DNA of 64,000 bases, taken from assembly GCA_964358485.1 (NCBI GenBank), contig CAYHPY010000005.1:3950-67949 (forward strand). Reading direction: 5' to 3'. Below the pieces are notes generated by a model. That model saw only the letters and a program-made list of their open reading frames with translations, ran no database searches and was not told the origin of the DNA. Made by a program: the position numbers and the translations under genes. Of this stretch, positions 1 to 28,792 are shown piece by piece. Positions within the stretch are counted from its first letter, which is position 1. Every line of letters begins with the position of its first letter. This DNA is from an uncultured Elusimicrobia bacterium (GTDB taxonomy: Bacteria; Elusimicrobiota; Elusimicrobia; UBA1565; UBA9628).

Positions 1-196
1 CGCGCGCGAGAAAGGTGTTGGCCGTCGTGATCATCCGCGTGTAGACCCCGGACGGGGCGGGATAGTAGGTGGTCAAGGTCACGGTTTCCGACCCGAGCTC
101 AACCGGGGCGCAGAGCATGAGGGCCATGCCGGCCAAGCCCCGGAACCATCCCGAAAACGCCGGAATTTCAAACTGAACTCGGATTTTTCGCGACAT
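1..196 (-). CDS. Exported/membrane protein with a 'TLTTYYPAPSGVY' motif (partial, runs off the left edge; absent from the ORF track)
   Basis: Manual translation from ATG at 196: MSRKIRVQFEIPAFSGWFRGLAGMALMLCAPVELGSETVTLTTYYPAPSGVYTRMITTANTFLAR, with no stop before base 1. A hydrophobic segment precedes the TTYYP motif. Confidence 0.7.
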   Translation of the reverse strand, partial: MSRKIRVQFEIPAFSGWFRGLAGMALMLCAPVELGSETVTLTTYYPAPSGVYTRMITTANTFLAR

Positions 197-396
197 GGGC
201 CGAATGCCTCCCTCTCCAAGTAGTGTAACAGCCCGACGCCCCGGGGGCCATGGCGACCGTCATAGAGGCGGCTCGAGAGCGTGGGATTGTGCACCGGTTT
301 TACTCTAACACTTGGCCGAATGGGCGGCCATTCTCTTTTGCTCCGCAAATTAGATTTCTTTCCCGAGATAGATTGGTGTTTACTGGAAAGCGCCAC

Positions 397-2142
397 ATGC
401 GGAAAGCCCTGATCAAAGTCACCTACCGGTGCAACAACCGGTGCATTTACTGCCATGCCGAGCCTTATCGGGGCCTCCCCGACCTTCCGACCGCGGAAAT
501 CGAGTCCCGGATCCGCTCGGCCGCCGGAAAAGGAGCCGACCTGGCCGTTTTTTCCGGCGGGGAACCGACCCTCCGAAACGACCTGCCGGCCTTGGCGCGG
601 GCCGCGCGCCGAAACGGAATGGCATTCGGAATCATCACCAACGGAAGACGGTTCGTCTATCCCGCCTTCGGCGGGGAATTGGCCCGGCTCGGGCTCCGTT
701 TCGCCTATGTCTCATTCCACTCCACGGACCGGACCGTCCACGCTCAAACCACCCGAACCGATTCCCTGTCCCAGACCCTGGCCGCCATTGAAAATCTGGT
801 GAAACTCGGGGTGGAAGTCGTCGTCAACACGGTGGTCACGCGCCTCAACCTCGAAGGCTTGGCGGCCGTCGCCGACCGCCTGGCGGCAATACGACCCGCG
901 AAAATCAAATTTTCTCTCATCGAGCCGAAAGGGGCCGCCCTCGAGAACCCTCCGGCCATTCCCCCTCCGGGCGAAGCCGCCGCCGCCATCCAAGAGGCGC
1001 TCCGCCGGGGACGGTCCCGCCACCCCGGCCAGGCCTTCGGCTGCGAGGGACTGACCCCCTGCCTGGTGGGGGAGTTCGAATCCCTCAATGACGATTTGAC
1101 GACCAACGGTTTTATCTCCTGCCAGGAGACTTTCGACGCCGCCCCCGGCCCGCCCGATTACTTCAATCGGGCGAAGCCCGACAACTGCTTGGATTGCGCC
1201 CATTGGCCCCGTTGCCCCGGAATTTTCACCGGCTACCTCTCCCGCTCCCCTCTGCCTCCCCTTCAACCGGAAATCATTCCCCGTTCAAATTCCTTCGTCT
1301 TCCTAAAATCCGGAAAGGCGACCCCCGCCCCCTTGAAGCCCTCCCGGTGCCCCGGACGAACGGCCGGTCCTCGGCGGATTTTTCTTCTCTCGGGAAAGTC
1401 GATCCGCTCCTATGACACGCCCACCGGAGATTTTACGATCGGCCAGATCTCGGAGGCTCTCTCCGAGGGGAGGATCTTCGCCGCGGCCTCATCGGCCCCC
1501 GGCGCGTCCGACCGGGGCTCCCTGCGGGAGCTTCAAAGGGCGCCGCTCTGCCGCGCCTGTCCCCGCACGGCCTCCTGCCGCCGCCTCCTCGTGGAAAGTC
1601 CGAAAAAAGGCGCGCCCGGCCTCGAGGAGCGCCTGCGAAAACTGGCGACGGGCCTCAGAGGCGACCTTCTGGAGGTCGGCTGCGGCGGCGTCCGCTTTCG
1701 CCCGGAACTGGCCCGGTCGGCGGCCGCCGGATTGATCCGCTATTTGGGCATCGACCCCTGCGCGCGAGCCGCCTCCTCTCCCGGCCTCCCCGTCCTGCGG
1801 GCGGAGGCCGAATCCTTCGGAATGCCGGACGCCTCCTTCGACCATGCCCTCCTTTTCGGCTCCTACAACCACATCCGCCGCCCCTCCCTGGCTTTCCCCA
1901 ACATCCGCCGCATGCTCAAGCCCGGAGGACGGTTGACGGTGGCCGACAGCGCGGCCTTCGGAGTCCTCCTCCCGGGGCCCCCGGCCCCGGCGCCCCCCGG
2001 GGGCTTCGAGCATTACCGCAATCACGACGCCCTTCAAGCCGAGGCTTTGTTGGTTCGTCTCGGCTTTGAAACCGAACCCGGATCGGGGGAAAGCGGCCGC
2101 GCCGCCGGGCCCGACTGGCTGCTCGAAATGAGGAAGGCATGA
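397..2142 (+). CDS. Radical SAM protein (HxsC-like/SPASM-type auxiliary Cys motif) fused to a C-terminal class I SAM methyltransferase
   Basis: CNNRCIYC, FSGGEPTL, ITNG, auxiliary CLDCAHWPRCPG and C-terminal LLEVGCG...YLGIDP...FDHALL. Start re-placed at ATG 397 (MRKALIKV); the track starts at 250. Confidence 0.88.
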   Translation: MRKALIKVTYRCNNRCIYCHAEPYRGLPDLPTAEIESRIRSAAGKGADLAVFSGGEPTLRNDLPALARAARRNGMAFGIITNGRRFVYPAFGGELARLGLRFAYVSFHSTDRTVHAQTTRTDSLSQTLAAIENLVKLGVEVVVNTVVTRLNLEGLAAVADRLAAIRPAKIKFSLIEPKGAALENPPAIPPPGEAAAAIQEALRRGRSRHPGQAFGCEGLTPCLVGEFESLNDDLTTNGFISCQETFDAAPGPPDYFNRAKPDNCLDCAHWPRCPGIFTGYLSRSPLPPLQPEIIPRSNSFVFLKSGKATPAPLKPSRCPGRTAGPRRIFLLSGKSIRSYDTPTGDFTIGQISEALSEGRIFAAASSAPGASDRGSLRELQRAPLCRACPRTASCRRLLVESPKKGAPGLEERLRKLATGLRGDLLEVGCGGVRFRPELARSAAAGLIRYLGIDPCARAASSPGLPVLRAEAESFGMPDASFDHALLFGSYNHIRRPSLAFPNIRRMLKPGGRLTVADSAAFGVLLPGPPAPAPPGGFEHYRNHDALQAEALLVRLGFETEPGSGESGRAAGPDWLLEMRKA

Positions 2143-4358
2143 GCGGCCCCCGGGTCCTGATCGTCAATCCTCCCTTGGCCGTCGAGGAGGCCTTCATCGA
2201 CGCCCCCCATTTCTCGGTCCTGGGACCGTTGTCCTGCGCCGCGGCCCTGCGCGACCAAGGATTCGAGGTCACGGCCGCCGACGCCTTTTCGTCGGGGCTT
2301 GAGGCCGCCGCGCTTCTGCGCCCGCCCCGGCGAAAATTCGAGGCCGTGGTCGTCGGGCTCCCGCCCTTTTTCAAGCCCCACGCCAAGACCGCCGCCGCCT
2401 CCGAATTTTTCGGCTTGCTCCGAAAAAGATTCCCGAAGGCCAAGCTCATCGCGGCCGACTGCTATTTCGGCGGGATGCACTACATCGAATACGAGCCTCC
2501 GGCTTTTCTTAAGAATTACCCCGAGGTGGACGCGGTGGTCAAATACGAAGGGGAGGCCGCGCTTGGCCGCCTGTTGGGAGATTGGCCCTCGCAACGGCCT
2601 TTGTCCGTTTCGGGCCGGGCGGCCGAAGTCCGCCCGGACGATTTCCCGCCCCCCGCTTGGGACCTCATCGACGTCCCGGCCTATTACCGCGCCCAGAAGG
2701 CCTTTTTCGCGCGCCTTCGCCGCCCGCCCCCCTACCGCAAAGACCTGCCCACCTTGCCGGCCGTCGCCTCCCGCGGCTGCGCGCACCGCTGTTCGTTCTG
2801 CACCGCCAATCCTGGGGAAAAGACCCCCGCCTGGCGGCCCCACGGGCTGGACTACCTGCGGCGGGCCTTTCGGACCCTCAAGGAGCGCCATGGCGCCGGC
2901 CGGGTGGCGATTCTAGACGGCTGCGCCAACCAGGACCCCGCCCGCTTCGAGGAAATTCTGGCCTTGTTGGAATCGTTGGGGCTGGAAGCGGATTTTCCCA
3001 ACGGCCTGCGCGCCGATCTTCTCTCCCGGGACTGCCTGCGCCGGCTCAAAGGTCTGGCGGAGTCGCTCACCGTCAGCGCCGAATCCGGCGACCCCGAGTT
3101 CCTCCGCCGCAAAATCGGCAAGGGCCTGGTTGCCGAAGACGTCGAACGGACCGCGGCCTGGTGCCGGGAACTCGGCCTGCCCCTGAGCGTCCACTATCTC
3201 GTGGGCTTGCCCGGGGAAACCCCGGAGGGCGTCAACAAGACCCTCGCCCACGCCTTGAAAATGAAGGAGGAGTTCGGGGCCGTTCCCCTCCTCCAGAATT
3301 TCACGCCCATTCCGGGCACGGCCCTGCACCGGGAATGCGTCCAAAAGGGCCTCTTGGGAGAATTCGACGCGGAGAACCTCCACCGCCATTTTCAAGGAAC
3401 GCCCGCGCTCGACACGCCGGAGCTTCCGCGGGCCAAGCTCGCCCGCATGACCCGGGCCTTCCAGCGCCGGATCTCGGCGGCCGCCCTGGAGAAAGTCATC
3501 ATCAACCTGACCTACGCCTGCGACAACGCATGCACCTTCTGCGCCGTCGGGGGTCGGGAGAAAGTCCACGGGGAGCCCGGCCGCTACGCCCGCCTTCTGC
3601 GGGATTACCGTCAGCGCGGGGCCTATCTGCTGGACTTGGACGGCGGGGAGCCCACCCTCTACCCCCACCTTTTCCACGTGGTGCGGCTGGCCGACGCGCT
3701 GGGCTACAAAAAAATAGCGCTCACCACCAACGGCCGCCGCCTGGCCGACCGCGCCTTCGCCTCGCGCCTGCTGCTTTCCGGCATCACCGACCTCATGGTG
3801 TCCCTCCATGGCCCCGACTCGGCGGTCCATGAAAGCCACACCAGGCGTCCGGGAAGCTTCGCGCAGACAGTGGCCGGAGTCAAGCACGCCGCGCGCCTGA
3901 AGCCCCGCGGCGTGTCCTTGGCGGTCAACGCCGTCGTGACCCGCGCCAACGCCCCGCGCGCCGCCGATTTTTTCCGATTCGTCCGGGACCTCGGAGTGGA
4001 AACCCTCAACCTCCAATTCGTCACCCCTTTCGGCCGGGCAAAAAACGCCTCCCACGGGGATGCGGCGGACCTTTGCCGCGCTCTGGGACCGGCCGTGGCC
4101 GAGTGGGGAAAAGTCCTCCGCATCCAGTTCGTCAACGCCCTTCCCTGCCGCCTCGAGGGCCTGTTTCCCGAAACGGAGCCGGAACTCGGGAAACATTCGC
4201 GCGAAATGGTGTTCGTCGATTCCCCGGCGCGCAATTTGGCGGCCTACCTGGACGCCCAGCGCCGGAAAAATTCGGAATGCGCCCCCTGCGAACACGCCGT
4301 GGCCTGCGGCGGCCATTACGTTTTCGAGGAAGAACGCCCCCCCGATGAAAAAGATTGA
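2139..4358 (+). CDS. Cobalamin-binding radical SAM protein fused to a second radical SAM domain
   Basis: N-terminal RVLIVNPP...LG...AAAL B12-binding pattern. SRGCAHRCSFC and a second CDNACTFC/DGGEPTL/TTNG. C-terminal CAPCEHAVACGG. ATGA overlap with the previous gene. Confidence 0.9.
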   Translation: MSGPRVLIVNPPLAVEEAFIDAPHFSVLGPLSCAAALRDQGFEVTAADAFSSGLEAAALLRPPRRKFEAVVVGLPPFFKPHAKTAAASEFFGLLRKRFPKAKLIAADCYFGGMHYIEYEPPAFLKNYPEVDAVVKYEGEAALGRLLGDWPSQRPLSVSGRAAEVRPDDFPPPAWDLIDVPAYYRAQKAFFARLRRPPPYRKDLPTLPAVASRGCAHRCSFCTANPGEKTPAWRPHGLDYLRRAFRTLKERHGAGRVAILDGCANQDPARFEEILALLESLGLEADFPNGLRADLLSRDCLRRLKGLAESLTVSAESGDPEFLRRKIGKGLVAEDVERTAAWCRELGLPLSVHYLVGLPGETPEGVNKTLAHALKMKEEFGAVPLLQNFTPIPGTALHRECVQKGLLGEFDAENLHRHFQGTPALDTPELPRAKLARMTRAFQRRISAAALEKVIINLTYACDNACTFCAVGGREKVHGEPGRYARLLRDYRQRGAYLLDLDGGEPTLYPHLFHVVRLADALGYKKIALTTNGRRLADRAFASRLLLSGITDLMVSLHGPDSAVHESHTRRPGSFAQTVAGVKHAARLKPRGVSLAVNAVVTRANAPRAADFFRFVRDLGVETLNLQFVTPFGRAKNASHGDAADLCRALGPAVAEWGKVLRIQFVNALPCRLEGLFPETEPELGKHSREMVFVDSPARNLAAYLDAQRRKNSECAPCEHAVACGGHYVFEEERPPDEKD

Positions 4359-5229
4359 GCTCGTCCTGTGGTTCCGCTGCAACACGCGCTGCCTTTTTTG
4401 CGTGGTGGATCCGCAGGCCGCCGGAGAATCCATGGGGACCGCCGCGGCCCTGCGCCGGTTGGAGCGGGGCCGGGAGGAAGGCGCCGAGGCCGTGGATTTC
4501 GGAGGCGGGGAGCCCACCCTGCGCGACGACCTCCCGGAGCTGGCCCGGGCCGCCGCCCGCCTCGGCTATCGGGACGTCGGCGTCAAATCCAACGGCCTGC
4601 GCCTCTGCTACCCCGACTACCTTGAGAGCCTCATGGCCGCCGGAATCCGCTCCTTCTCGGTCCCGGTCTGGGGCCGTCCGGCCGAGCATGACGCGCTGTG
4701 CGGGGTCAAACGGGCATTCGACATGCTGGAAATGGGCGTCAAGCACGCCTTGGATTTCGGCGCCCAAGTCCAGGCGGACCTGCTCCTCACCAGCTTATCG
4801 GTCGCCCACGCGCCCGCCCTGGCCGCCGATTTCGCCGCCCTCGGAGTCCGCCGGTTCTCGGCCCGGCTTTACTGCCTCTTCGGCTCGGGATTCACCCGCC
4901 CCCATCTGCTCCCCGGCATGACCGAGGCCGGCCGGGCGACAGTGGAAGCGGCCCGGGTCTTGGCCCCGAGCGGGGCGAGCATCGCAACCGGGCACATCCC
5001 CCCCTGCCTGCTGGGGCCGATGCCGGAGCTCTACGATGATATCGCCAAGCAGGAATTGATCGTCGTCACCCCGGGCGGGGAGTTTCCGGCGGAAACTTCG
5101 CCCTTCGAGGCGGGGAATCAAACGCCCCGTTGCGCGGGCTGCGCCTACGCGGGCCGGTGCCGGGGGCCGCGGATCGAATATGTCCGGGAGCGGGGCGACG
5201 GGGAATTCGTCCCGGTTCGGGGAGCTTAA
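4345..5229 (+). CDS. Radical SAM protein (HxsC-like/SPASM-type auxiliary motif)
   Basis: CNTRCLFC, FGGGEPTL, KSNG, IPPCL and CAGCAYAGRCRG. Start re-placed at ATG 4345, overlapping the previous stop region. Confidence 0.88.
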   Translation: MKKIELVLWFRCNTRCLFCVVDPQAAGESMGTAAALRRLERGREEGAEAVDFGGGEPTLRDDLPELARAAARLGYRDVGVKSNGLRLCYPDYLESLMAAGIRSFSVPVWGRPAEHDALCGVKRAFDMLEMGVKHALDFGAQVQADLLLTSLSVAHAPALAADFAALGVRRFSARLYCLFGSGFTRPHLLPGMTEAGRATVEAARVLAPSGASIATGHIPPCLLGPMPELYDDIAKQELIVVTPGGEFPAETSPFEAGNQTPRCAGCAYAGRCRGPRIEYVRERGDGEFVPVRGA

Positions 5230-5468
5230 ATCAACTCAACGGTCCCCTGATTATTCTGTTGCCGATGTTCCCGGCTGTTCACCGTTGTTGCCGCTCCAGC
5301 CGTTCCGAAAACGCGCCGAGTTCTTTAATCAAAATTTTCATCCCTGGTGCCAGGCATGTAGATCTCGGTCCGGACCGAATTCCCATTTTGCCTTTTCTCT
5401 TTAAAGCCCACCGGATGCCAGCGAACGGTGGAACCCCGGAACCAAGCCGATTGAGCCGAAATTTCAAA

Positions 5469-5512
5469 TCAAACTCGCGGCGCCGCGAGTTTGAACCGAA
5501 ATCCCGGTTCAA
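5469..5512. repeat. 26-bp perfect palindrome plus an adjoining 8-bp hairpin between convergent genes; possible terminator
   Basis: TCAAACTCGCGGCGCCGCGAGTTTGA (5469-5494) is its own reverse complement. TTGAACCG (5491-5498) pairs with CGGTTCAA (5505-5512). Confidence 0.8.
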
Positions 5513-5536
5513 CCCCCGGCCAATGCCCCGGCGAAA

Positions 5537-7495
5537 TTAAAAGAACCCCTCTTTATACTGTTTGAACACCTGCGCCAGGAACAGCACCTCCGGGTGCATG
5601 TGCGCCAATTTCGGGAGGACCACCTTGACCCGGGAGCGGAATTCCCCCACCCTGTCGGCCAGCGCCCGGACGGCCGCCGCGTCGGAGGGCTTGAAGTTCT
5701 GCAGGTCCAGCACCAGCTTGTTGCGGCTCTCGGCCAGCGCCGCGCGCAGGTGCTCCCAGACCTCCTTGGCGTGGGCCGCCGAGGCCGCGCCCTCCAGGCG
5801 CATCCAGACCTGGCGGTGGGCGTGCTGGAGCTCCACCTGGACCCTGAGGCCCGGCTTGGAGGCCCGGTGCGGCAAAGTCTCCCAGATGCGGAAATTGCCC
5901 CAGCCCTCTTCCGGCAGGCGGTAGGAGGTCCGGGTCAGGCTGGGGTGCTGGAACAGGTTCAAGCGCCCCGCAACGCCGGTCCAGGCGGCCGCGGCCAGGG
6001 CCGCTCCCGAGGCCAGGCGTTCCTTCAGGGTCGGCGCGCCCAATTCGCCGTAGGCCCGCTCCTCCAGGCTCTCGATGCGCTCGCGCACGGCGGCGTTGAC
6101 GGCCAGGAGTTTTCCCGCCAGGAAGGTCGGGTAGGAGTTTCTCACCTCGCGGGCGAAGCGTTCGGCCTTTTTGCGGAGCATCGGGTTGCCGCTGTCGCGC
6201 AGGGTCCGGTAGCCGGACAGCCAACGGTCGATGACCCGGTACACGCTCGGGCCCAGCCTGCGGTAATCCTCCTCGAAGCACCGGCGCTGGAGCTCCTCGA
6301 TCTCGGCACCGCTCAAGCGCGGGTGCTTGATCATCGCCCGAAACCCGTCCCCCCGCCGGTACAGGTACTCCGGGTCGTTCTTGACTTCGTCGATGAGGCG
6401 TCCCTCCCGCGCCACCCGCGCGTGAAAGGGCGTCCCGGGGATGGGATTGTAGATCAAAAACTGCGAGAGGCAGGGCTCCAGGGAGAGCAGGCCGTCGAGC
6501 TCTTCGGCTACGATTTCCTTGTCCTGGTAATCGAAGCCCACGATCATGGAGGCCAGGACCGTGATCCCGTGCCTTCTCAGTTCGGGGAAGACCTCGGACG
6601 CCGGACGGCCCGCCTGCTTGGCAAACCCTGAGCGGGTCCCTTCATAGCCGATCCAAAGCCCGTCGATGCCCATTTCCAGGAGCTCCGTGACCTTGTACTG
6701 GTTGAGGGCCCGCAGGCTGGCGAAGGCGAAGATGGAGAGCGCCTTGCCGGCCTTGAGGACGCTGTCCCGGAATTCCATGGCCCGGCGCTTGTTCAGGAGG
6801 AAATCCTCGTCCAGGATGGTGAAGGACATGTCGGGGTCCAGGTCCAGGTAGCGCTCGATGACCGCGTGGATGTCCCCTCCGGTCGGGAGGAGCTTGATGT
6901 GCTTGCGCTCGAAAAAATGCGAGGTGCAGCAGAAATCGCAGCCGTTGGGGCATCCCAGCCCCGCGAAGATCATCCCGGTATTGGAGACCGGCAAGGAGAA
7001 GAGCTTCAGTTTGCTGACGATCAACGGGTGGTTGTACGGCATCTCCTTGGGGGTCTCCCCCAAAAGGCGGCGCATGAAGGTCACGCCTTCCTCCCGGCAG
7101 ATGAAGTCCCCGTAGGGTTTGAGGACTTCCTCGCCCAGGATCGTCCCGTAGCCGCCCAGGACGATCTTGGATTTCGGGGCGTACTTGCGGATCAGGGCGA
7201 CCGTTTCCTTCATCCGGTGGAAGACCGGGAGCAGGAAGGAGACCCCGACATAGTCGTAGCCCTTCTTGAGCTCCCGGATGAGCTCCCGCTTGCTGGGATA
7301 CTGGAGGACGACGGCGGGGGCGTCCAGGTTCTGTGCGACGTATTCCAGGGAAAAGTGGAGATGCAGCGCCCGGGGGCTGAAAAGGCCCTGGGCCCGGGTG
7401 ACCTGCCGGAAAAGCAACTCGTAACCGACGGTGGGACCGTCCCCGTGCTCGGGGCCGAGGGGGCGGCAAACGCTGGTGAACAGGACTTTGGGCAT
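5537..7495 (-). CDS. Cobalamin-binding radical SAM protein with a C-terminal STAS-like extension
   Basis: GLGCPNGCDFC, ILDEDF, GLWIGYEG, SMIVGFD. The C-terminus (VWMRLEG...LVLDLQNFK...A...L) resembles STAS. Confidence 0.85.
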   Translation of the reverse strand: MPKVLFTSVCRPLGPEHGDGPTVGYELLFRQVTRAQGLFSPRALHLHFSLEYVAQNLDAPAVVLQYPSKRELIRELKKGYDYVGVSFLLPVFHRMKETVALIRKYAPKSKIVLGGYGTILGEEVLKPYGDFICREEGVTFMRRLLGETPKEMPYNHPLIVSKLKLFSLPVSNTGMIFAGLGCPNGCDFCCTSHFFERKHIKLLPTGGDIHAVIERYLDLDPDMSFTILDEDFLLNKRRAMEFRDSVLKAGKALSIFAFASLRALNQYKVTELLEMGIDGLWIGYEGTRSGFAKQAGRPASEVFPELRRHGITVLASMIVGFDYQDKEIVAEELDGLLSLEPCLSQFLIYNPIPGTPFHARVAREGRLIDEVKNDPEYLYRRGDGFRAMIKHPRLSGAEIEELQRRCFEEDYRRLGPSVYRVIDRWLSGYRTLRDSGNPMLRKKAERFAREVRNSYPTFLAGKLLAVNAAVRERIESLEERAYGELGAPTLKERLASGAALAAAAWTGVAGRLNLFQHPSLTRTSYRLPEEGWGNFRIWETLPHRASKPGLRVQVELQHAHRQVWMRLEGAASAAHAKEVWEHLRAALAESRNKLVLDLQNFKPSDAAAVRALADRVGEFRSRVKVVLPKLAHMHPEVLFLAQVFKQYKEGFF

Positions 7496-7625
7496 TTTAT
7501 TCCTCCAAAAGGACGGCCGTCGTCCGGGTAAGGCGGGAGCGGGACGGCGGCGAGGGGACGAGGCTAGGGACGGCTGGGTGGCGCACTACCTGTGATTCTA
7601 GATTTTGGGGAGCGGGGCCGCGTTC

Positions 7626-7925
7626 TTATTTGCGACGCCCCTGAGAACGAGCCCCCAGGATGCGGTAGACCGACTTCTGTGAGATGCCCAGGTGGTCGGC
7701 GATGGCGGCCGGGGTCCGCCCCCCTTTGCGCCAGTGCCGGATGCAGGCCGGGCGTTCGGCGCAGGCCGCGCAGGGGAGACGGGAGCCCTTCTTGGGGATC
7801 CACATCCGCCGGCCGCCGAAGACTTCCTGCACCAGAAGGAATTTCTTCGGGCCCAGGAGCTTGAGGAGCTCCGCGGCGCCGGAGGAATCGCACCGGTAGC
7901 GGGCGGGACAGCGGAATGTTTTCAT
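7626..7925 (-). CDS. Mor/C-family helix-turn-helix DNA-binding protein
   Basis: 'EVFGGRRMWIPK' followed by the HTH 'PAAIADHLGISQKSVYRIL'. ATGA overlap with the upstream gene. Confidence 0.7.
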   Translation of the reverse strand: MKTFRCPARYRCDSSGAAELLKLLGPKKFLLVQEVFGGRRMWIPKKGSRLPCAACAERPACIRHWRKGGRTPAAIADHLGISQKSVYRILGARSQGRRK

Positions 7926-9118
7926 GCGGCTGAAACGCCGTCATGCAACACATTTGCCTTTACAGAGATTTTTGGCGGGGTTTCGACCCCCAAAATGCGC
8001 CCTCCCGCCCCCAATTGGAACTTGCGGCCCCCCCAAGAGACCGTCCCCCCGGTCCAACCCAGGATCCAAACCAATGAATTCCATAGGTCATGAAGGGGTA
8101 TCAACGGCAGCCAGGCCCGAAAATAGGGGTGATAATTTCCAGAACCGATCCAGGCGGCCGTGGCCACCCGGTTGGCGGCGGTCACAAGCAACGCCGCCCC
8201 GCCAAAAGCCGGCGGGGCGAAAAGGGCGTAGACCGCGGCCCAGGTCACTCCATGGGTGAGGATCATGCCCAAATACCCCCCGGGGGTGGTGAAGCGCATG
8301 GTCCGGACCCAGCGGATTTGGTGGGCCAGATAGGCGCTCCAGCCGTAGCGGTCCATTTCAATGTCGATCCAATAGGGGAGAAGTTGAACCTGAAATCCCA
8401 GCCGTTTGATTTTTTCGGCCAGCCGGAAATCCGAATGGATGCAGTCGGCCAAGGCCTCGAAGCCCCCGAGCCGCTCGAGCAGGTCGCGCTTGACGGCCAA
8501 GGTGGCTCCCAGGCCGAAATCCACGGGAGCGGCCCAAGCCCGCAGGAGCATGGCCGGATTGTAACAGGTCTGGATGTACAGGGATTCCAGGACCGCCCAG
8601 AAACCGCGCGGCTCGCGGCACCGATACGGGCAGGTCACCAGGCCCACCGCCGGGTCCCGCAGGGGCGCCAGGACCCGCTTGAGATAGTCCGGGGCCACCA
8701 TGGTGTCACCGTCCAATAAGACGATCCAGGAATGCTTGGCGCGTTTCAAGGCCCCGGCGTGGTTGGCTTCCTTGGGATTCGGCCATTTTCCCTCCGCCGC
8801 GTAGGCGACCTCGAGGTCCGTTCCCGGAAATTCCTTTTTGATTTGTTCAACCGCGGGAAAGGCCGCGAGGTCCCCCCGCTCGACGGCCACGAGAATTTGA
8901 AAAGAGGGGTAGTCCAGGGAGCACAAACGGCGGAGGGTTTCTTCCAGGGCGCGGGGGGCGCCCTTTAACGGCAAAATAAGACTAACCCCCGCCGAAGGCG
9001 GGTGGAAATCTTTTGGAACGATTTCGGGAACGGAACAAAAAAGACGCCGAACGGCAAAGGCCGAGATCAAGAAATATAGATTCCCAAAAAGAACTGGGAA
9101 CAGGAGAAGGATCTCCAT
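7922..9118 (-). CDS. GT2/GT21 ceramide glucosyltransferase-like (HpnI-like) membrane glycosyltransferase
   Basis: NPKEAN, LLDGD, SDF and the QIRW (QxxRW) motif; N- and C-terminal TM segments. Confidence 0.85.
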   Translation of the reverse strand: MEILLLFPVLFGNLYFLISAFAVRRLFCSVPEIVPKDFHPPSAGVSLILPLKGAPRALEETLRRLCSLDYPSFQILVAVERGDLAAFPAVEQIKKEFPGTDLEVAYAAEGKWPNPKEANHAGALKRAKHSWIVLLDGDTMVAPDYLKRVLAPLRDPAVGLVTCPYRCREPRGFWAVLESLYIQTCYNPAMLLRAWAAPVDFGLGATLAVKRDLLERLGGFEALADCIHSDFRLAEKIKRLGFQVQLLPYWIDIEMDRYGWSAYLAHQIRWVRTMRFTTPGGYLGMILTHGVTWAAVYALFAPPAFGGAALLVTAANRVATAAWIGSGNYHPYFRAWLPLIPLHDLWNSLVWILGWTGGTVSWGGRKFQLGAGGRILGVETPPKISVKANVLHDGVSAA

Positions 9119-9126
9119 AGGAGATC

Positions 9127-10452
9127 TTAAAATTCGCTGAAATCCCGCATCTTATCCAAATTGCGGGCGACCTTCATCTGCAGGAGATTGACGTTCCAGG
9201 ACGCGAAATGGGATTCCCGGTACGGGATCGGCAGGCGGCGGACCGTGGACCGGAGGGAGTAGAATTCCCGGCGGATTTTGGCGACCCTTTCCAGCAGGCC
9301 CTGAGGAGTGAAGCGCAGGGGCTTGAAATGGCAGGACAGGCCGGGCCAGCGCTCCAGGTTTTCCTCGTCGATGATCCGCCCCTCGGCCTTCATCTTTTCA
9401 TAGACCCCGGTTCCCCGCAGGGGCACGAGGATGTTGAAATAGGCGGCCGGGACCTTGTGCTCTTCCAAAAATTCCATGGTCGCCGGAAAGACGCTCTCAT
9501 CGTCGGTGTCGGTCCCGAACACGAAGTTGAGCGAGAAGCTGATATCCCGGCGGCGCAGGTTGCCGATCATATGGACGAACTCGTGGGCCTTGTTGAAATT
9601 CTTGTTCATTCCGCGCAGGGTCCGTTGGTCGATGCTTTCGGCCCCCGTGTTGACGTGGAGCAGGCCCGAGCGCCGGGCCAGATCCATGAATTTCTCATCC
9701 ATGCAGAAATGGGCCGAGAACAAGGTGGACCAGCGGACCTTCAGGGGGATGAGGGCCTCCATCAGCTCCATGGCCTTGGTCTTGTCCCCGGAGAACTGGC
9801 TGGCCGCGAAAAAGATGTGACGGCTGCCGCAGCGCTTGACGTCGTCCACAATCTCCTCGGTCGGGCGCACCCGCCAGCCGTAATCTCCGGACAGGCGGCG
9901 TTCCGCGCAGAAATCGCAAGTGAAGGGACAGCCCCGGGAGTGGAGGATGACGTAGGGCCGGTAGAAGACGTATTTCTTCGGGTCCAGGAGGTCCCAGCGC
10001 GGGGCGGGCATGCCGCGCAGGTCCGCCGGACGGTCCCGGCGGTAGAACTTCTGGAGGCGCCCGGCGGCCGCGTCCTCCAGCATCCGGGGGAAAATCTCCT
10101 CGCCCTCACCGACGCAGATGCCGTCGGCGTGAGGGGCGGCTTCCTCATGGAAGAAGGTCATGTGGGGGCCGCCGAGCAGGACCTTGACCCCCCGCCGGCG
10201 GAACTCATCGGCGATCTCGTAGGCCCGAAGGGAGGTCACCGTGCGCACCGCGATGCCCACGACGTCGGCCCGCGTGTTGTAGTCGACCCTCTCCGTCGCG
10301 TCGTCGATGACCGACACCTCCCAATGCTTGGGCGCCAAGGCGGCCATATAGGGCAGAACGGCCCCGACCAGTTTCCGCTTGGGGAACCGATACGGGACTC
10401 GGACATCGCGGCGGCTGTAGCCCGTCGCTTGGATCAGGAGGAGTTTAGGCAT
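9127..10452 (-). CDS. Cobalamin-binding radical SAM protein
   Basis: B12 domain (LLGGPH...DGICVGEGE), SRGCPFTCDFC, TGAES, FVFG. Confidence 0.9.
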   Translation of the reverse strand: MPKLLLIQATGYSRRDVRVPYRFPKRKLVGAVLPYMAALAPKHWEVSVIDDATERVDYNTRADVVGIAVRTVTSLRAYEIADEFRRRGVKVLLGGPHMTFFHEEAAPHADGICVGEGEEIFPRMLEDAAAGRLQKFYRRDRPADLRGMPAPRWDLLDPKKYVFYRPYVILHSRGCPFTCDFCAERRLSGDYGWRVRPTEEIVDDVKRCGSRHIFFAASQFSGDKTKAMELMEALIPLKVRWSTLFSAHFCMDEKFMDLARRSGLLHVNTGAESIDQRTLRGMNKNFNKAHEFVHMIGNLRRRDISFSLNFVFGTDTDDESVFPATMEFLEEHKVPAAYFNILVPLRGTGVYEKMKAEGRIIDEENLERWPGLSCHFKPLRFTPQGLLERVAKIRREFYSLRSTVRRLPIPYRESHFASWNVNLLQMKVARNLDKMRDFSEF

Positions 10453-10527
10453 GACGGATGAGGAAGAGAAATTTTACCAGGAACCGTCCCCCTGGCCATC
10501 GGACAACTGTGCCGTGGATGAGAAACC

Positions 10528-11274
10528 TCACGACCGGACCCGGAGACTCGCCATCAGGCGCAAAGCCGCCGCCGCGTTGCGCAGACGGGCCCGAAGTCCC
10601 GCCGCGAGCTTGCTTTCCCCCCGCTCCCGCGGCAGGTAGCGGACGGGGAATTCCACGATTCTCAGGCCCTCGACTCGGGCGGCGTGCAGGACGAAAAGGT
10701 CGAAGGTAAAATCCAGCGGCCCCGCCGAGAGCCGCCCGATCAAATCCCGCCCGAAGAGCTTGGGCTGGGCGTTTATGTCGGGGGCCCGGCGAGGACTTCC
10801 GGGACCGGCCTCGGCGCTGGAAAGCCCCAGGCGCCAGGCAGAAAGGCGGCTGAAGCCCCAGGAAACGAACCGCTCCAGGGCGCCCCGCGGACCTTCGCGC
10901 CGTCCCATCACCAGGCATGGACCACTCGGGGTTTCGCGGAGATAAATGTCCCGGGCGGTCCAAATGTCATCGGGCGGGCACTGCAGGTCGGCGTGGGTGA
11001 AGGCCACGATCGGGGCCAGCGCGGACTCCAGCCCCCGGCGCAGTCCGTCCCCGTATCCCCGGTTGATTTCCACGCGCAGGACGCGGAGGAATGAATTCCC
11101 CGGAGACCGCAGAAGCGCGGCGAGGATCTCCGGAGTGGCGTCCTGGGAACCGTTATCGACCAGAATCAGCTCGAAAGCCGCGCGGCCGGAAAGCGCCCGG
11201 AATCGTTCGACGAGCGGCTCTAAGTTTCCCGCCTCGTTGTAGCAAGGGACGACGACTGAAAGTTCAGGCCGCAA
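10528..11274 (-). CDS. Family 2 glycosyltransferase (Dpm1-like)
   Basis: SVVVPCYNE, VDNGSQD, NRGYG, ADLQ, R..GESK. TTG start. Confidence 0.9.
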   Translation of the reverse strand: MRPELSVVVPCYNEAGNLEPLVERFRALSGRAAFELILVDNGSQDATPEILAALLRSPGNSFLRVLRVEINRGYGDGLRRGLESALAPIVAFTHADLQCPPDDIWTARDIYLRETPSGPCLVMGRREGPRGALERFVSWGFSRLSAWRLGLSSAEAGPGSPRRAPDINAQPKLFGRDLIGRLSAGPLDFTFDLFVLHAARVEGLRIVEFPVRYLPRERGESKLAAGLRARLRNAAAALRLMASLRVRS

Positions 11275-12811
11275 CCGGAGGCCTCGTTCCCGTAAAATAG
11301 CCGTGCCAATAGCTATACTCGGCCAAGGCCTCCGGGCTCCCCCAATTCAGGTAGGCCTCGGATTCGAAGGCCCGGACGTCCATGCCGCGCTCCAGGGCCA
11401 ACCCTGGAAGGCTGTCAATTTGAAATTCGCCGTTGACCTTGGGACCGTCGCGAAGAAGGCGCCCGACCAGTTCCCCTAATAGGCGCGCGGTCTTAAAATA
11501 GATCGTTCCAGTCAGCAGGAGATCCTTCCAAGGTTCAGGGCCGAGCGGTTTCTTGACCGAAACCGTTCTCACCCGGCCGCCCGAATCGGCTTCAAAGAAG
11601 GAAAAGCTTGCCGGCGTCCGCCGGGCGCCCGGGTAGCCCCGCTGCCCGACCACCACCATGTCGGGCCCTTGCGCCAGGAGCGCCTCCCACCGGCCCTGGT
11701 CCCAAACCAAGCCGTGGTCGCACGCCGAAACCAGGACCGCTTCGTCCGGCGCCAGGACCCCGAGGGCGGCGGCCACGGTCGCGGCCTCCCCCTCGGTCTC
11801 CGCGTCCAAGCCGATGAGCTCCGCCCCGGGAGCGGCCGAAGCGACCCGCGGACGGATGGAATTGCGACAGATCATGACCGGCGGCCGGGAACCCCGGGGA
11901 AGGCGCTCGACCGCCCGCGCGAACATCGGCCGCCCGGCCACCTCAATGAGCGGCTTGGGGTCGGGAAAAGCCGCGAAACGCGAACCTTTTCCGGCCATGG
12001 GAAGGACCAACCGGGGGCCCGGCCGCCCGTTCCGGGCGTGGGCGAGCGCCGCCGCCTCGAAGGCGCGATGCCAATAGACATAATCCTCAAGATCGGCGGG
12101 AGTGCCCCATTGGAGGAAATGGGCGAGCTCGTAAATCCGCACCGGCCGCCCATCCTGGATCATCGGATTATAGGCCAGGCTGACGAAAAACTCGCCCTGC
12201 GTGGAAAGGCCCTCGGCCACGGCGCGCGAGCAGTATTGCTTGGCCAATTTCCCCGAGGCGAAATAATAAGTCCCGGAGGACGCGTACTCTTGGGTGCGAT
12301 CGGAGGTGAAGCAGGCCTTCTCCCGGACCTCCAGGATCCGCCCGCCGCTTTCCCGGCAATAAGCGTACATGTTGGCGCCCAGGCAATGGGGATGAAAGCC
12401 CCGGTAGCAGAAGATCGCGCCCTCGCAGGCGGTGCGCTCAGCGAAATCCAGGAAATCCCCGGGATCCCAGTCGAAGGAAAAATCGCAGTAGTTGACCAGC
12501 ACCGGGTCCCCGTCGCCAATCGCCGCCGCCCCGTCCAATAGAGTTCGAACCGGCCCCTCCTTATGCCCCTTGATCCCGACGATCTCGGCGGACGGAGCGC
12601 ACTCCAGGAGCACCCGGCGCAGTTCGGTGGCCCTCAAATGCGCCTCGTCGCAGATGAAGACGAAACGCCAGGACGGAGGAAAGCGCTCGATGAGCCGGGC
12701 CACCGCGGGTTTTCCGGCCACGTCAAGCAGAGGTTTGATCTCCCGGTAGCCCTCGCGGCGGAAACGCTCCCCGGAGCCCGCCATCAAAATCACGACCCGA
12801 GGGGCGTTCAT
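11264..12811 (-). CDS. Tandem (two-domain) sugar/alcohol-phosphate nucleotidyltransferase-like protein
   Basis: Two repeats of the NTP-transferase signature (ILMAGSGERF...KPLL and LPMAGKGSRF...KPLI), each ending in L.WG(T/S)P. Start re-placed at ATG 12811 (ATGA overlap). Confidence 0.85.
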   Translation of the reverse strand: MNAPRVVILMAGSGERFRREGYREIKPLLDVAGKPAVARLIERFPPSWRFVFICDEAHLRATELRRVLLECAPSAEIVGIKGHKEGPVRTLLDGAAAIGDGDPVLVNYCDFSFDWDPGDFLDFAERTACEGAIFCYRGFHPHCLGANMYAYCRESGGRILEVREKACFTSDRTQEYASSGTYYFASGKLAKQYCSRAVAEGLSTQGEFFVSLAYNPMIQDGRPVRIYELAHFLQWGTPADLEDYVYWHRAFEAAALAHARNGRPGPRLVLPMAGKGSRFAAFPDPKPLIEVAGRPMFARAVERLPRGSRPPVMICRNSIRPRVASAAPGAELIGLDAETEGEAATVAAALGVLAPDEAVLVSACDHGLVWDQGRWEALLAQGPDMVVVGQRGYPGARRTPASFSFFEADSGGRVRTVSVKKPLGPEPWKDLLLTGTIYFKTARLLGELVGRLLRDGPKVNGEFQIDSLPGLALERGMDVRAFESEAYLNWGSPEALAEYSYWHGYFTGTRPPVAA

Positions 12812-13407
12812 GCCCACAGGTCCGGCCGTTTGGTGCAAACGGCGTCCACGCGGCCCCTCAGTCGCCGGAAATCCCGGATGCGCGACGGAGGATAGCCTTC
12901 CACTTCCGGAGACACCAGGCAAATCTTGAAATGCCGGGAGGCGCGTTCCACCAAGGAAAGCGCGGGCGGCCGGCCCGAGAAGCAATCCAGCCAGAGCCAC
13001 TCCGCCTTTCCTTTGAGGCGCGACGCCGACTCCAGGGATTCGTACTCGGACACCCGCAAGGCCACGCGCCGCTCTCCTTGCCGCAAAGCGAGACGAACCG
13101 TGGAGGGAAAGCTCAGATCGAGGAAGAAAAAACGCTCGATCCCACGCTCCCGCAGAAGCTTCAAGGCGGCCCCGTCCAGGCCGTCCTCCTTCGGATTGAG
13201 AATCAAAGTTCCCGTGCGTCCTTGCCGGGCCCAGAGGGCCAAATAGGCCTCCAACGAAGGCCCCGAAGCTTGAGGGTCGTGGGCTAAAAACACTCGACCT
13301 CCGCGGGAGCGGAGGTCGACTTCGGCTCCAAGTTCCGTCCCCAAATTTTTCAATTCGTTAAGCGTATTGACCCGGTGGGCTACAATTTCCGAGGGATCGT
13401 TTCTCAT
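12808..13407 (-). CDS. Glycerophosphodiester phosphodiesterase-like (PLC-like TIM barrel) protein
   Basis: IVAHRVN, GAEVDLR, FLAHD, LNPKE, WLWLD, VSPE, AVCTK. Confidence 0.75.
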   Translation of the reverse strand: MRNDPSEIVAHRVNTLNELKNLGTELGAEVDLRSRGGRVFLAHDPQASGPSLEAYLALWARQGRTGTLILNPKEDGLDGAALKLLRERGIERFFFLDLSFPSTVRLALRQGERRVALRVSEYESLESASRLKGKAEWLWLDCFSGRPPALSLVERASRHFKICLVSPEVEGYPPSRIRDFRRLRGRVDAVCTKRPDLWA

Positions 13408-28048: not shown

Positions 28049-28792
28049 ATGAAAACCTCCCCTCTCTTTCTTGCCGCCGGTTTTTTTGCGGCCCTCGCCC
28101 GCGCCGCGTCCGCCGCCCCCAGCCTCCCCTGGGACTCGGCCGACCCGGTCGCCGCTTTGCGCTGCGAACTGGCCGCCCCTTCCCCCGCCCCCGAATTCGT
28201 CGCCGCGCCCGTGGCGGCCCCCAAGACCCCGCCCAAACCTTTCGCCGCCGGGGCCGAGGGCGGCTACGGCGCCTGCGTGGCCAAGGGCTACTCCCACTCC
28301 TCCTGCAAAGACGCCCAAACCGGCTACGCGGCCTGCTCGGCCAACGGTTACTCCCACGCCTCCTGCAAGGACGCCAAGGGCGGCTACGCGGCCTGCACGG
28401 CCAACGGCTACTCCCACGCCTCCTGCAAGGACGCCGATGTGGGTTATTCCGCCTGTTCAGCCAACGGCTATTCCCACGCCTCGTGCAAGGACGCCAAGGG
28501 CGGCTACGCGGCCTGCACCTCCAACGGCTACTCCCACGCTTCCTGCAAGGACGCCGATGTGGGTTATTCGGCCTGTTCGTCCAACGGCTATTCCCACGCC
28601 TCGTGCAAGGACGCCAAGGGGGGCTACGCGGCCTGCACGGCCAACGGCTATTCGCATGCCTCGTGCAAGGACGCCGACCTGGGCTACGCGGCGTGCATCT
28701 CCAACGGCTATTCGCACGCGTCCTGCAAAGACGCCCGGGAAGGCTACAAGGACTGCGTCGCCAACGGCTACTCGCACGCCTCCTGCAAATAG
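28049..28792 (+). CDS. Secreted protein with nine 20-aa Cys/His/Tyr repeats (GYxACxxNGYSHASCKDA)
   Basis: Signal peptide, Pro/Ala linker and nine tandem repeats; TACAAT -10 at 28035-28040. Confidence 0.85.
   Translation: MKTSPLFLAAGFFAALARAASAAPSLPWDSADPVAALRCELAAPSPAPEFVAAPVAAPKTPPKPFAAGAEGGYGACVAKGYSHSSCKDAQTGYAACSANGYSHASCKDAKGGYAACTANGYSHASCKDADVGYSACSANGYSHASCKDAKGGYAACTSNGYSHASCKDADVGYSACSSNGYSHASCKDAKGGYAACTANGYSHASCKDADLGYAACISNGYSHASCKDAREGYKDCVANGYSHASCK
28259..28789 (+). repeat. Coding tandem repeat, 60-nt unit x9 (last unit truncated), with 120-nt higher-order alternation
   Basis: Units alternate ...DAK-GGY and ...DAD-(V/L)GY. Differences between units are largely synonymous (e.g. 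TAC TCC CAC vs TAT TCG CAT). Confidence 0.95.

Follow-up and report, generated by a model that had tools for sequence, protein, structure and literature searches.

The question raised by this locus is what substrate is acted on by a compact set of radical S-adenosylmethionine (SAM) enzymes encoded in DNA of an uncultured Elusimicrobia bacterium. The stretch analyzed (the window; 64,000 nucleotides, positions 3950-67949 of contig CAYHPY010000005.1, hereafter C5, from a 4.4-Mb metagenome-assembled genome (MAG) of 246 contigs) carries near its left end three overlapping genes, g1, g2 and g3 (positions 397-5229), which together encode four radical-SAM domains, a B12-type Rossmann domain and a class I methyltransferase. 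These genes, domains and motifs had been described in an original prediction made from the letters of the window, and all of them are present in the sequence. The trio is a real, conserved and uncharacterised module that constitutes an enlarged variant of the His-Xaa-Ser (HXS) maturation systems, and we consider it likely that g1-g3 form the tailoring arm of an HxsA4-type, HXS-like system whose substrate is the repeat protein HxsA4.

The three genes lie on the plus strand and are translationally coupled. The first, g1 (397-2142), overlaps g2 (2139-4358) by 4 nt (ATGA), g2 overlaps g3 (4345-5229) by 14 nt, and a GGAAG-type ribosome-binding site stands before each overlap. Translation of g1 starts at the ATG at 397 (MRKALIKV), in agreement with orthologue starts in the alignment, and yields 581 aa; an upstream ATG at 250 was rejected as a coding start, the in-frame 49-codon extension (250-396) not being conserved in orthologues. 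The g2 product has 739 aa. For g3 the start was placed at the ATG at 4345 (MKKIELV; 294 aa), as in orthologues, within a frame that is open from 4060 (389 aa). A promoter and terminator scan of window positions 1-5700 gave no signal exceeding shuffled expectation.

Pfam searches matched g1 to Radical_SAM (E 1.8e-23) and Methyltransf_11 (E 1.6e-12; also Methyltransf_23 and Methyltransf_25), identified two Radical_SAM stretches in g2 (E 1.6e-36), and one Radical_SAM domain in g3. Combined with NCBIfam profiles, alignments and an AlphaFold2 model, these matches divide g1 into three parts: residues 1-296 form an HxsC-like radical-SAM domain, a small linker rich in beta structure follows, and residues ∼406-581 make up a class I SAM methyltransferase. 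The radical-SAM cluster motif of g1 is CNNRCIYC (CX3CX2C; 430-453), its auxiliary-cluster motif is CLDCAHWPRCPG (CX2CX5CxG; 1186-1221) with a fourth Cys in the Pro-Cys at residue 222, and the SAM-binding glycine loop of the methyltransferase (motif I, LLEVGCGGV) lies at 1654-1686. The N-terminal half of g2 (2139-3473) combines a B12-type Rossmann domain with a class-B-like radical-SAM core (CX3CX2C formed by C214, C218 and C221; 2778-2801), according to profiles and Foldseek. The C-terminal half (3474-4358) is again an HxsC-like radical-SAM domain by NCBIfam, alignment and Foldseek (CX3CX2C formed by C461, C465 and C468; 3519-3542), with an auxiliary motif composed of C670 plus CAPCEHAVACGG (4278-4313). 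The whole of g3 is a stand-alone HxsC-like radical-SAM domain, as judged from NCBIfam and alignments, with its CX3CX2C motif at 4378-4401 and its auxiliary motif, CAGCAYAGRCRG, at 5131-5166.

Collinear alignment over ∼275 residues, with 28-35% identity (BLASTP E 1e-17 to 1e-27), relates the N-terminal g1 domain and the C-terminal g2 domain to each other and to g3 as a whole. Each contains CX3CX2C at position 12-16, Pro-Cys at 221-225, and CX2CX5CxG at 263-269. Across 43 g2 homologues, C214, C218 and C221, C461, C465 and C468, C670, C714, C717 and C723, and G725 were invariant. Among 31 g1 homologues the same was true of C222, C264, C267, C273 and G275, while C12, C16 and C19 were at least 90% conserved; in the methyltransferase, G422 and G428 were invariant and C429 and G430 at least 90% conserved. 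Judged from these alignments, the conservation of Cys in g1 and g2 homologues exceeds chance by far. The original prediction of three paralogous domains, each ending in a P-C...CxxC-x5-C-x-G tail, is thus borne out by both the collinear paralogy and the conserved four-Cys tails, which are predicted Fe-S ligands. No SPASM match was returned in the Pfam scan of g1-g3, though the four conserved Cys (PC...CX2CX5C) occur in all three domains; likeness to BlsE, SkfB and PqqE suggests that they may bind a single twitch-like cluster. A second CX2CX5C in the g1 linker was rejected as a conserved site, being deleted in two of the homologous loci (L024 and L027). The AlphaFold2 model of g1 (predicted local distance difference test score, pLDDT, of 90) matched generic radical-SAM cores only in Foldseek searches, with no informative match for the linker or for the specificity of the methyltransferase.

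The best NCBIfam family for all three of these non-B12 domains was HxsC4 (NF038332), with 88, 134 and 69 bits for g1, g2 and g3 against a cut-off of 500. Scores against HxsC (TIGR03977) were 63.6, 65.7 and 46.1 bits (46-70 overall; cut-off 267.9). On profile and alignment grounds, the three domains are distant HxsC4 paralogues, two of them fused to other, predicted catalytic domains. No gene in a search of the whole genome reached the cut-off of either HxsC or HxsC4, the maxima being 155.7 bits for HxsC (on another contig, C52) and 146.8 bits for HxsC4. Since HxsC4 is the best match for all three domains and a canonical HxsC or HxsC4 is absent from the genome, we consider it most likely that the trio takes the place of HxsC and extends its role. 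The paralogues scored 320-374 bits against their positional orthologues, versus 54-128 bits against other HxsC-like radical-SAM genes of the same loci. Each paralogue is therefore its own orthologue group, which indicates that the triplication is old and that the three domains are probably non-redundant.

A likely substrate for such enzymes is encoded beyond the edge of the window. The 3.9 kb of C5 to its left (locus L009) contains minus-strand genes that point away from g1, among them HxsD (C5 ∼1811-2410; TIGR03976, 55.3 and 58.7 bits at C5:2114-2374, cut-off 50), the radical-SAM/SPASM enzyme HxsB (C5 ∼342-1811; TIGR03978, 515 bits at C5:381-1757, cut-off 370) and HxsA4, a (His-Gly-Ser)n repeat protein (C5:3-323; NF038313, 75.4 bits, cut-off 55). 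HxsD, HxsB and HxsA4 are thus located on the same contig ∼1.9-4 kb upstream of the trio, outside the window. HxsA4 consists of a conserved leader of ∼60 residues, in which there is one hydrophobic helix, and of (His-Gly-Ser)n, with nothing further. Orthologues share the leader (MGKDIIPKIKKDLTRFLTSEEGKILKKD... then the hydrophobic helix), have 14-34 HxS units, and end in HGSW*; C5 itself starts within the ...HGSHGSHGS repeat, with at least 14 HxS units ahead of the contig end. The earlier statement that no convincing precursor was adjacent is consequently true only inside the window, because the window edge excludes HxsA4 and the Hxs core. Domains of the RRE type, a search for which had been advised at the same time, were not found: no RRE or PqqD family occurred among the matches for g1-g3, HxsB or HxsD in Pfam or in the best 25 NCBIfam families per protein.

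Neighbourhoods of g2 homologues were mapped using phmmer queries plus called genes. The ∼70 full-length g2 homologue clusters are all metagenomic. In seven other Elusimicrobiota-type loci, among them L014 (from an Elusimicrobiota MAG), L023, L024 and L025 (each from a different genome of the same GTDB family), the P0172 locus and L027, the genes run contiguously on one strand in the order [Cys-rich protein]-HxsD-HxsB-HxsA4-g1-g2-g3. This order holds for every locus with at least 50% identity to g2, and in all of these g1 begins 30-110 bp past the HxsA4 stop, in one operon. More distantly, a Myxococcota locus (L016) and locus L031 also contain HxsD, HxsB and HxsA4 plus g1/g2-like genes. Overall, a full Hxs core was located within 10 kb in 9/16 g2-type loci and a partial core in 2/16. 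The co-conserved short open reading frame (ORF) that the original prediction recommended looking for is HxsA4, which directly precedes g1 in the relatives and co-occurs with the trio across genomes. Of the two pathways it had proposed for these HxsC-like enzymes, peptide/protein maturation or cofactor synthesis, it is the maturation part that this co-occurrence supports.

At the level of the phylum, g2 was found in 5/401 species genomes, all of one family, and HxsB above the cut-off in 89/401 (22%), often in 2-3 copies. Given that HxsB is widespread and g2 confined to few genomes, the HxsD-HxsB-HxsA4 core appears to be common in Elusimicrobiota, with g1-g2-g3 a rare tailoring module on it.

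The N-terminal half of g2 was compared with known structures. In the AlphaFold2 model of g2 (pLDDT 92.8) this half matched AprD4, MgmA, TsrM, TokK, CysS and OxsB by Foldseek, with E 1e-14 to 6e-15 and target TM-scores of 0.65-0.70 against MgmA (PDB 9ccb) and AprD4 (6fd2). Sequence profiles returned AprD4, 9ccb, TokK and TsrM, and NCBIfam returned HpnJ, TIGR04013 and NF038361. The Pfam B12-binding family (PF02310) scored 16.4 bits, below its cut-off of 32.1; a homologue 71% identical to g2 (P0004) carries a precomputed PF02310 match. These Foldseek matches establish the B12-type fold, so the B12 domain of the original prediction stands as a fold, while cobalamin binding and use by g2 are only predicted. 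AprD4 is a cobalamin-free enzyme. The substrate of MgmA, a cobalamin radical-SAM enzyme, is methyl-coenzyme M reductase, in which a glutamine becomes C-methylated. The N-terminal half of g2 shares the Rossmann plus radical-SAM architecture of class B cobalamin radical-SAM enzymes such as MgmA, and of the look-alike AprD4, but differs in being fused to a second complete radical-SAM domain, in its sub-threshold Pfam B12-binding match, and in that its cobalamin use is predicted. The C-terminal half of g2 resembles BlsE, PqqE, SkfB and SuiB by sequence profile and Foldseek, of which SuiB and SkfB are peptide maturases. In some g2 homologues (P0030, P0034) a methyltransferase is fused directly.

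A number of observations weigh against HxsA4 as the substrate. Here the Hxs core points away from g1-g3 rather than in the same direction, the Hxs block being inverted relative to the trio, and the precursor gene is cut by the contig end. No Hxs gene was found within 10 kb in 5/16 g2-type loci (L018, L026, L029, L030 and L032), two of which, L018 and L029, are short contigs. The co-occurrence of g2 and HxsB at the genome level (5/5 versus a background of 90/401, hypergeometric ∼5e-4) is confounded by phylogeny, and because all five g2 genomes belong to one family we did not count it as independent evidence. The chemistry proposed for HxsA4 (cross-linking/H-abstraction plus C- and N/O-methylation) is, moreover, a prediction.

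As an alternative, the trio might tailor a non-peptide substrate, be it a sugar, a glycan or glycolipid, or a cofactor of tetrapyrrole-like type; it would then be linked to Hxs genes through a shared larger pathway or island and not through a shared substrate. In locus L032 the genes are ordered g2-g3-carbamoyltransferase-g1 among DegT, epimerase, GT1, GT2 and PMT_2 genes, with no Hxs gene or HxS-repeat ORF within 10 kb, and L030 and L026 are likewise without Hxs genes. Glycosyltransferase (GT) or NTP-transferase genes also lie near g2 homologues in this window (7922-13000), in L015, L016, L028 and L029, and in the P0172 locus. Among the closest solved structures are those of AprD4, BlsE and DesII, all of which modify sugars, and AprD4, the best structural match of the g2 N-terminal half, acts on an aminoglycoside sugar. 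A tetrapyrrole substrate has moreover been proposed for radical-SAM suites beside group VI nitrogenase-like genes (bioRxiv 10.1101/765248; Chem Rev 2026, PMC13474568), though no tetrapyrrole genes occur in the present cluster. HxsC4 and HxsC, the best families of all three domains, are protein-modifying partners. Close orthologues (at least 50% identity to g2) always have g1 in one operon with HxsA4, and the GT and B12 genes downstream in the window are convergent and not syntenic in close relatives; for these last two reasons we regard a non-peptide substrate as unlikely.

The downstream genes in question form a minus-strand block (5537-13000) that converges on the trio. It encodes a B12-type radical-SAM protein that ends in a STAS domain (5537-7495), an HpnI-like GT21 glycosyltransferase (7922-9118; TIGR03472, 267 bits, below the cut-off of 310), a B12 radical-SAM protein (9127-10452) nearest to TIGR04072, the ‘ladderane-type lipid’ family, a GT2 glycosyltransferase (10528-11274), and a double NTP-transferase (11264-13000). 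Because it is not syntenic with g1-g3 in close relatives, this block was rejected as part of the trio's system and treated as a separate lipid/glycan module. Its gene content resembles a set for tailoring lipids or glycolipids. GT genes recur loosely near distant g2 homologues.

HxsA4, our preferred substrate, can be considered in light of the HXS system of Escherichia coli, in which HxsD-HxsB-HxsC-HxsA protects the cell by blocking the entry of phage DNA (Li et al., Nat Commun 2026, PMC13128918). There HxsB and HxsC mature HxsA, adding 8 Da on the SHRSS motif, and HxsC acts on the HxS motif in complex with HxsD (PMC13128918). In common with this canonical system (TIGR03976-03979), the Elusimicrobia locus has HxsB and HxsD equivalogs above their cut-offs, a precursor with tandem His-Xaa-Ser repeats and an N-terminal segment suited to processing or export, and HxsC-related radical-SAM partners. 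It differs in lacking HxsC, in whose stead are three proteins that together contain three HxsC-like domains, one B12-type radical-SAM domain and one methyltransferase. The canonical gene order D-B-C-A contrasts with D-B-A-(g1 g2 g3) in the relatives and with g1-g3 divergent from D-B-A4 here. Unlike canonical HxsA, HxsA4 is (HGS)14-34 ending in W, without a peptidoglycan-binding domain or basic repeats. The locus also includes extra conserved secreted proteins, one Cys-rich and one with a TTYYP motif, and its host belongs to Elusimicrobiota rather than Pseudomonadota. With respect to NCBIfam type 4 (HxsA4, NF038313; HxsC4, NF038332), the precursor passes as HxsA4, whereas the radical-SAM domains, at 69-134 bits, fall far under the 500-bit HxsC4 cut-off.

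On this basis a working scheme can be put forward in which the precursor would be HxsA4, its core modification would come from HxsB, and export of the product would follow. The three HxsC-like domains would jointly take over and diversify the job of HxsC, with HxsD presenting HxsA4 to them; by analogy with the E. coli HxsC-HxsD complex (PMC13128918), HxsD is the likely adaptor. Each domain, with its own radical-SAM cluster and four-Cys auxiliary cluster, may abstract hydrogen at a different position of the His-Gly-Ser unit, with cross-linking, epimerisation or oxidation as possible outcomes. The B12-type radical-SAM domain of g2 could add a methyl group to an unactivated carbon, and the class I methyltransferase of g1 would methylate a heteroatom, for example an imidazole N or a Ser O.

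Whether the whole locus might serve in anti-phage defence, the matured and exported HxsA4 blocking the entry of phage DNA, is a separate matter of biological role and compatible with HxsA4 as the substrate of the trio. The protection that canonical HxsD-HxsB-HxsC-HxsA confers on E. coli (PMC13128918) is a precedent; the patchy distribution of g1-g3 (g2 in 5/401 phylum genomes) and the hydrophobic leader helix of HxsA4, which fits export, are in keeping with it. HxsA4, however, lacks the peptidoglycan-binding domain and the Arg/Lys-rich repeats that underlie the published DNA-binding model, and HxsB, in 89/401 genomes and often in 2-3 copies, looks more like a lineage trait than part of a mobile defence island. 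PADLOC returned only generic viperin-type radical-SAM matches, and in relatives the operon runs on into nitrogenase-like reductase genes. We hold a defence role to be less likely than not; HxsA4 could instead yield an envelope material, a cofactor precursor or a peptide that binds metal.

Two secreted proteins are encoded between HxsD and g1, and each was considered as an alternative substrate for all or part of the trio. Nearest to g1, and divergent from it, is the TTYYP gene (C5:3489-4145, minus strand, read from the contig; 218 aa), the first 65 codons of which form its 5' end inside the window (2-196, minus strand). Its product has a signal peptide followed by the motif SETVTLTTYYPAPSGVYTRMITTxNTFLARD and a YCC tail, and matched no Pfam or NCBIfam family. 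The second, of ∼390 aa (C5:2407-3579, minus strand, read from the contig), is secreted and Cys-rich, has a coiled-coil tail with many Lys and Glu residues, and likewise has no Pfam or NCBIfam family match. A homologue of the Cys-rich protein is always situated directly upstream of HxsD in L014, L023, L024, L025 and L027.

The TTYYP protein, with its Tyr-rich N-terminal motif (TLTTYYPAPSGVY), gains some interest as a substrate from its position beside g1 and from the fact that the motif occurs in only two copies in the genome, both at Hxs clusters (C5 and C52). Homologues stand at the head of the L014 and L025 clusters, and the family is present in 5/5 g2-bearing genomes. In L014, L025 and the genome's own C52, the TTYYP homologue directly precedes a small HxsC-like radical-SAM gene, which is missing beside the C5 copy. 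That arrangement counts in both directions, since the TTYYP protein of relatives thereby has its own adjacent radical-SAM gene. Four loci that keep g1-g3 (L023, L024, L027 and the P0172 locus) have no TTYYP gene in the operon, and in two genomes (G269 and G178) the gene is found on other contigs. With 218-290 aa, the TTYYP protein moreover looks like a folded secreted protein and not like a leader-core peptide. We judge it very improbable that the trio, or part of it, acts on the TTYYP protein or on the Cys-rich protein. The TTYYP protein had earlier been named as a speculative candidate, and it has proved to be a co-conserved neighbour of Hxs clusters.

The other candidate named at that time, a protein encoded at 28049-28792 (plus strand), is secreted, 247 aa long, and built from about ten copies of a 19-residue unit (GYAACxxNGYSHASCKDA), each containing two Cys. 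One paralogue lies on contig C44. The protein was dropped as a substrate, since no family matches it, Hxs families included, and four g2-bearing relatives contain no homologue.

Polytopic membrane proteins of ∼390 aa were also observed in or beside clusters (L014 3495-4670; L032 6479-7651), the one in L014 with a weak match to prepilin peptidases (Peptidase_A24, E 1e-4). This protein may thus act as a leader peptidase, with either HxsA4 or the TTYYP protein as its target.

Three further contigs of the same genome contain Hxs-like genes (C119, locus L010; C52, locus L012; C43, locus L013). C119 (1-10735) begins with an HxsA4 C-terminus, (HGS)n-HGSW* (bases 1-84), followed on the same strand by a TPR protein (65-2140) and a NifH-like gene (2144-2968; PF00142, 261 bits). 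Further along are two NifD/K-like genes (Oxidored_nitro), three HxsC-like radical-SAM genes and, at the contig end, a second NifH-like gene. C52 starts within a second HxsA4-like gene and includes two HxsB genes above the cut-off, HxsD-like genes, four HxsC-like radical-SAM genes and the TTYYP paralogue. C43 starts with (GSH)n-CRGGWCCPRCF*, which is followed by HxsB-like SPASM enzymes and a 1484-aa ORF. That HxS-repeat genes are located at the starts of all three contigs indicates that the repeats break the assembly. The repeat DNA of the contig ends provided no usable overlap with which to join the C5 start to C119 or C43. The C5 start presumably joins one of the two, and C119 bears the canonical HGSW* end of the C5 orthologue group.

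In L014, g3 is followed within a single operon by a gene tail of the C119 type (NifH/NifD/NifK-like). Radical-SAM gene suites adjacent to group VI nitrogenase paralogues (Nfl) have been described from groundwater Elusimicrobia, Gracilibacteria and Myxococcales, with many radical-SAM genes, some of them fused to B12-binding domains, and tetrapyrrole chemistry was proposed for them (Meheust et al. 2020, bioRxiv 10.1101/765248), a proposal also found in a later review (Chem Rev 2026, PMC13474568). The Meheust paper makes no mention of Hxs, His-Xaa-Ser or peptides. The loci described here share with those suites the lineages, the many radical-SAM genes, the B12 fusions and, next to the L014 operon and on C119, the Nif-like genes. 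They differ in that the conserved partner is a ribosomal repeat protein and in that the Nif-like genes are only putatively of group VI. One may speculate that the HxsD-HxsB-HxsA4 core produces a heavily cross-linked, methylated, imidazole-rich polymer or cofactor precursor via interchangeable radical-SAM modules, g1-g2-g3 being one of them, and that the nitrogenase-like reductases (putative group VI Nfl) act on the modified peptide and not on a tetrapyrrole. We regard this extension as doubtful. If true, it would represent the first peptide substrate for an enzyme of the nitrogenase family, and the physical link between HxsA4 and nitrogenase-like genes offers a concrete, testable alternative to a tetrapyrrole role for group VI, a family as yet uncharacterised.

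The function of HXS was assigned only in 2026, and as near-exclusive to Pseudomonadota: 99.7% of HXS systems were placed in that phylum by a survey whose query was canonical HxsA (PMC13128918). The HxsB counts in Elusimicrobiota are at odds with this distribution. With HxsB in 22% of Elusimicrobiota genomes, together with HxsA4 and variable radical-SAM sets that replace HxsC, the known HXS systems appear to be one small branch of a much larger family. Within it, g1-g2-g3 stand out in bringing four radical-SAM sites and a methyltransferase, encoded by three coupled genes, to bear on what is probably a three-residue repeat, and they provide a well-delimited test case for new radical chemistry on His, Gly or Ser.

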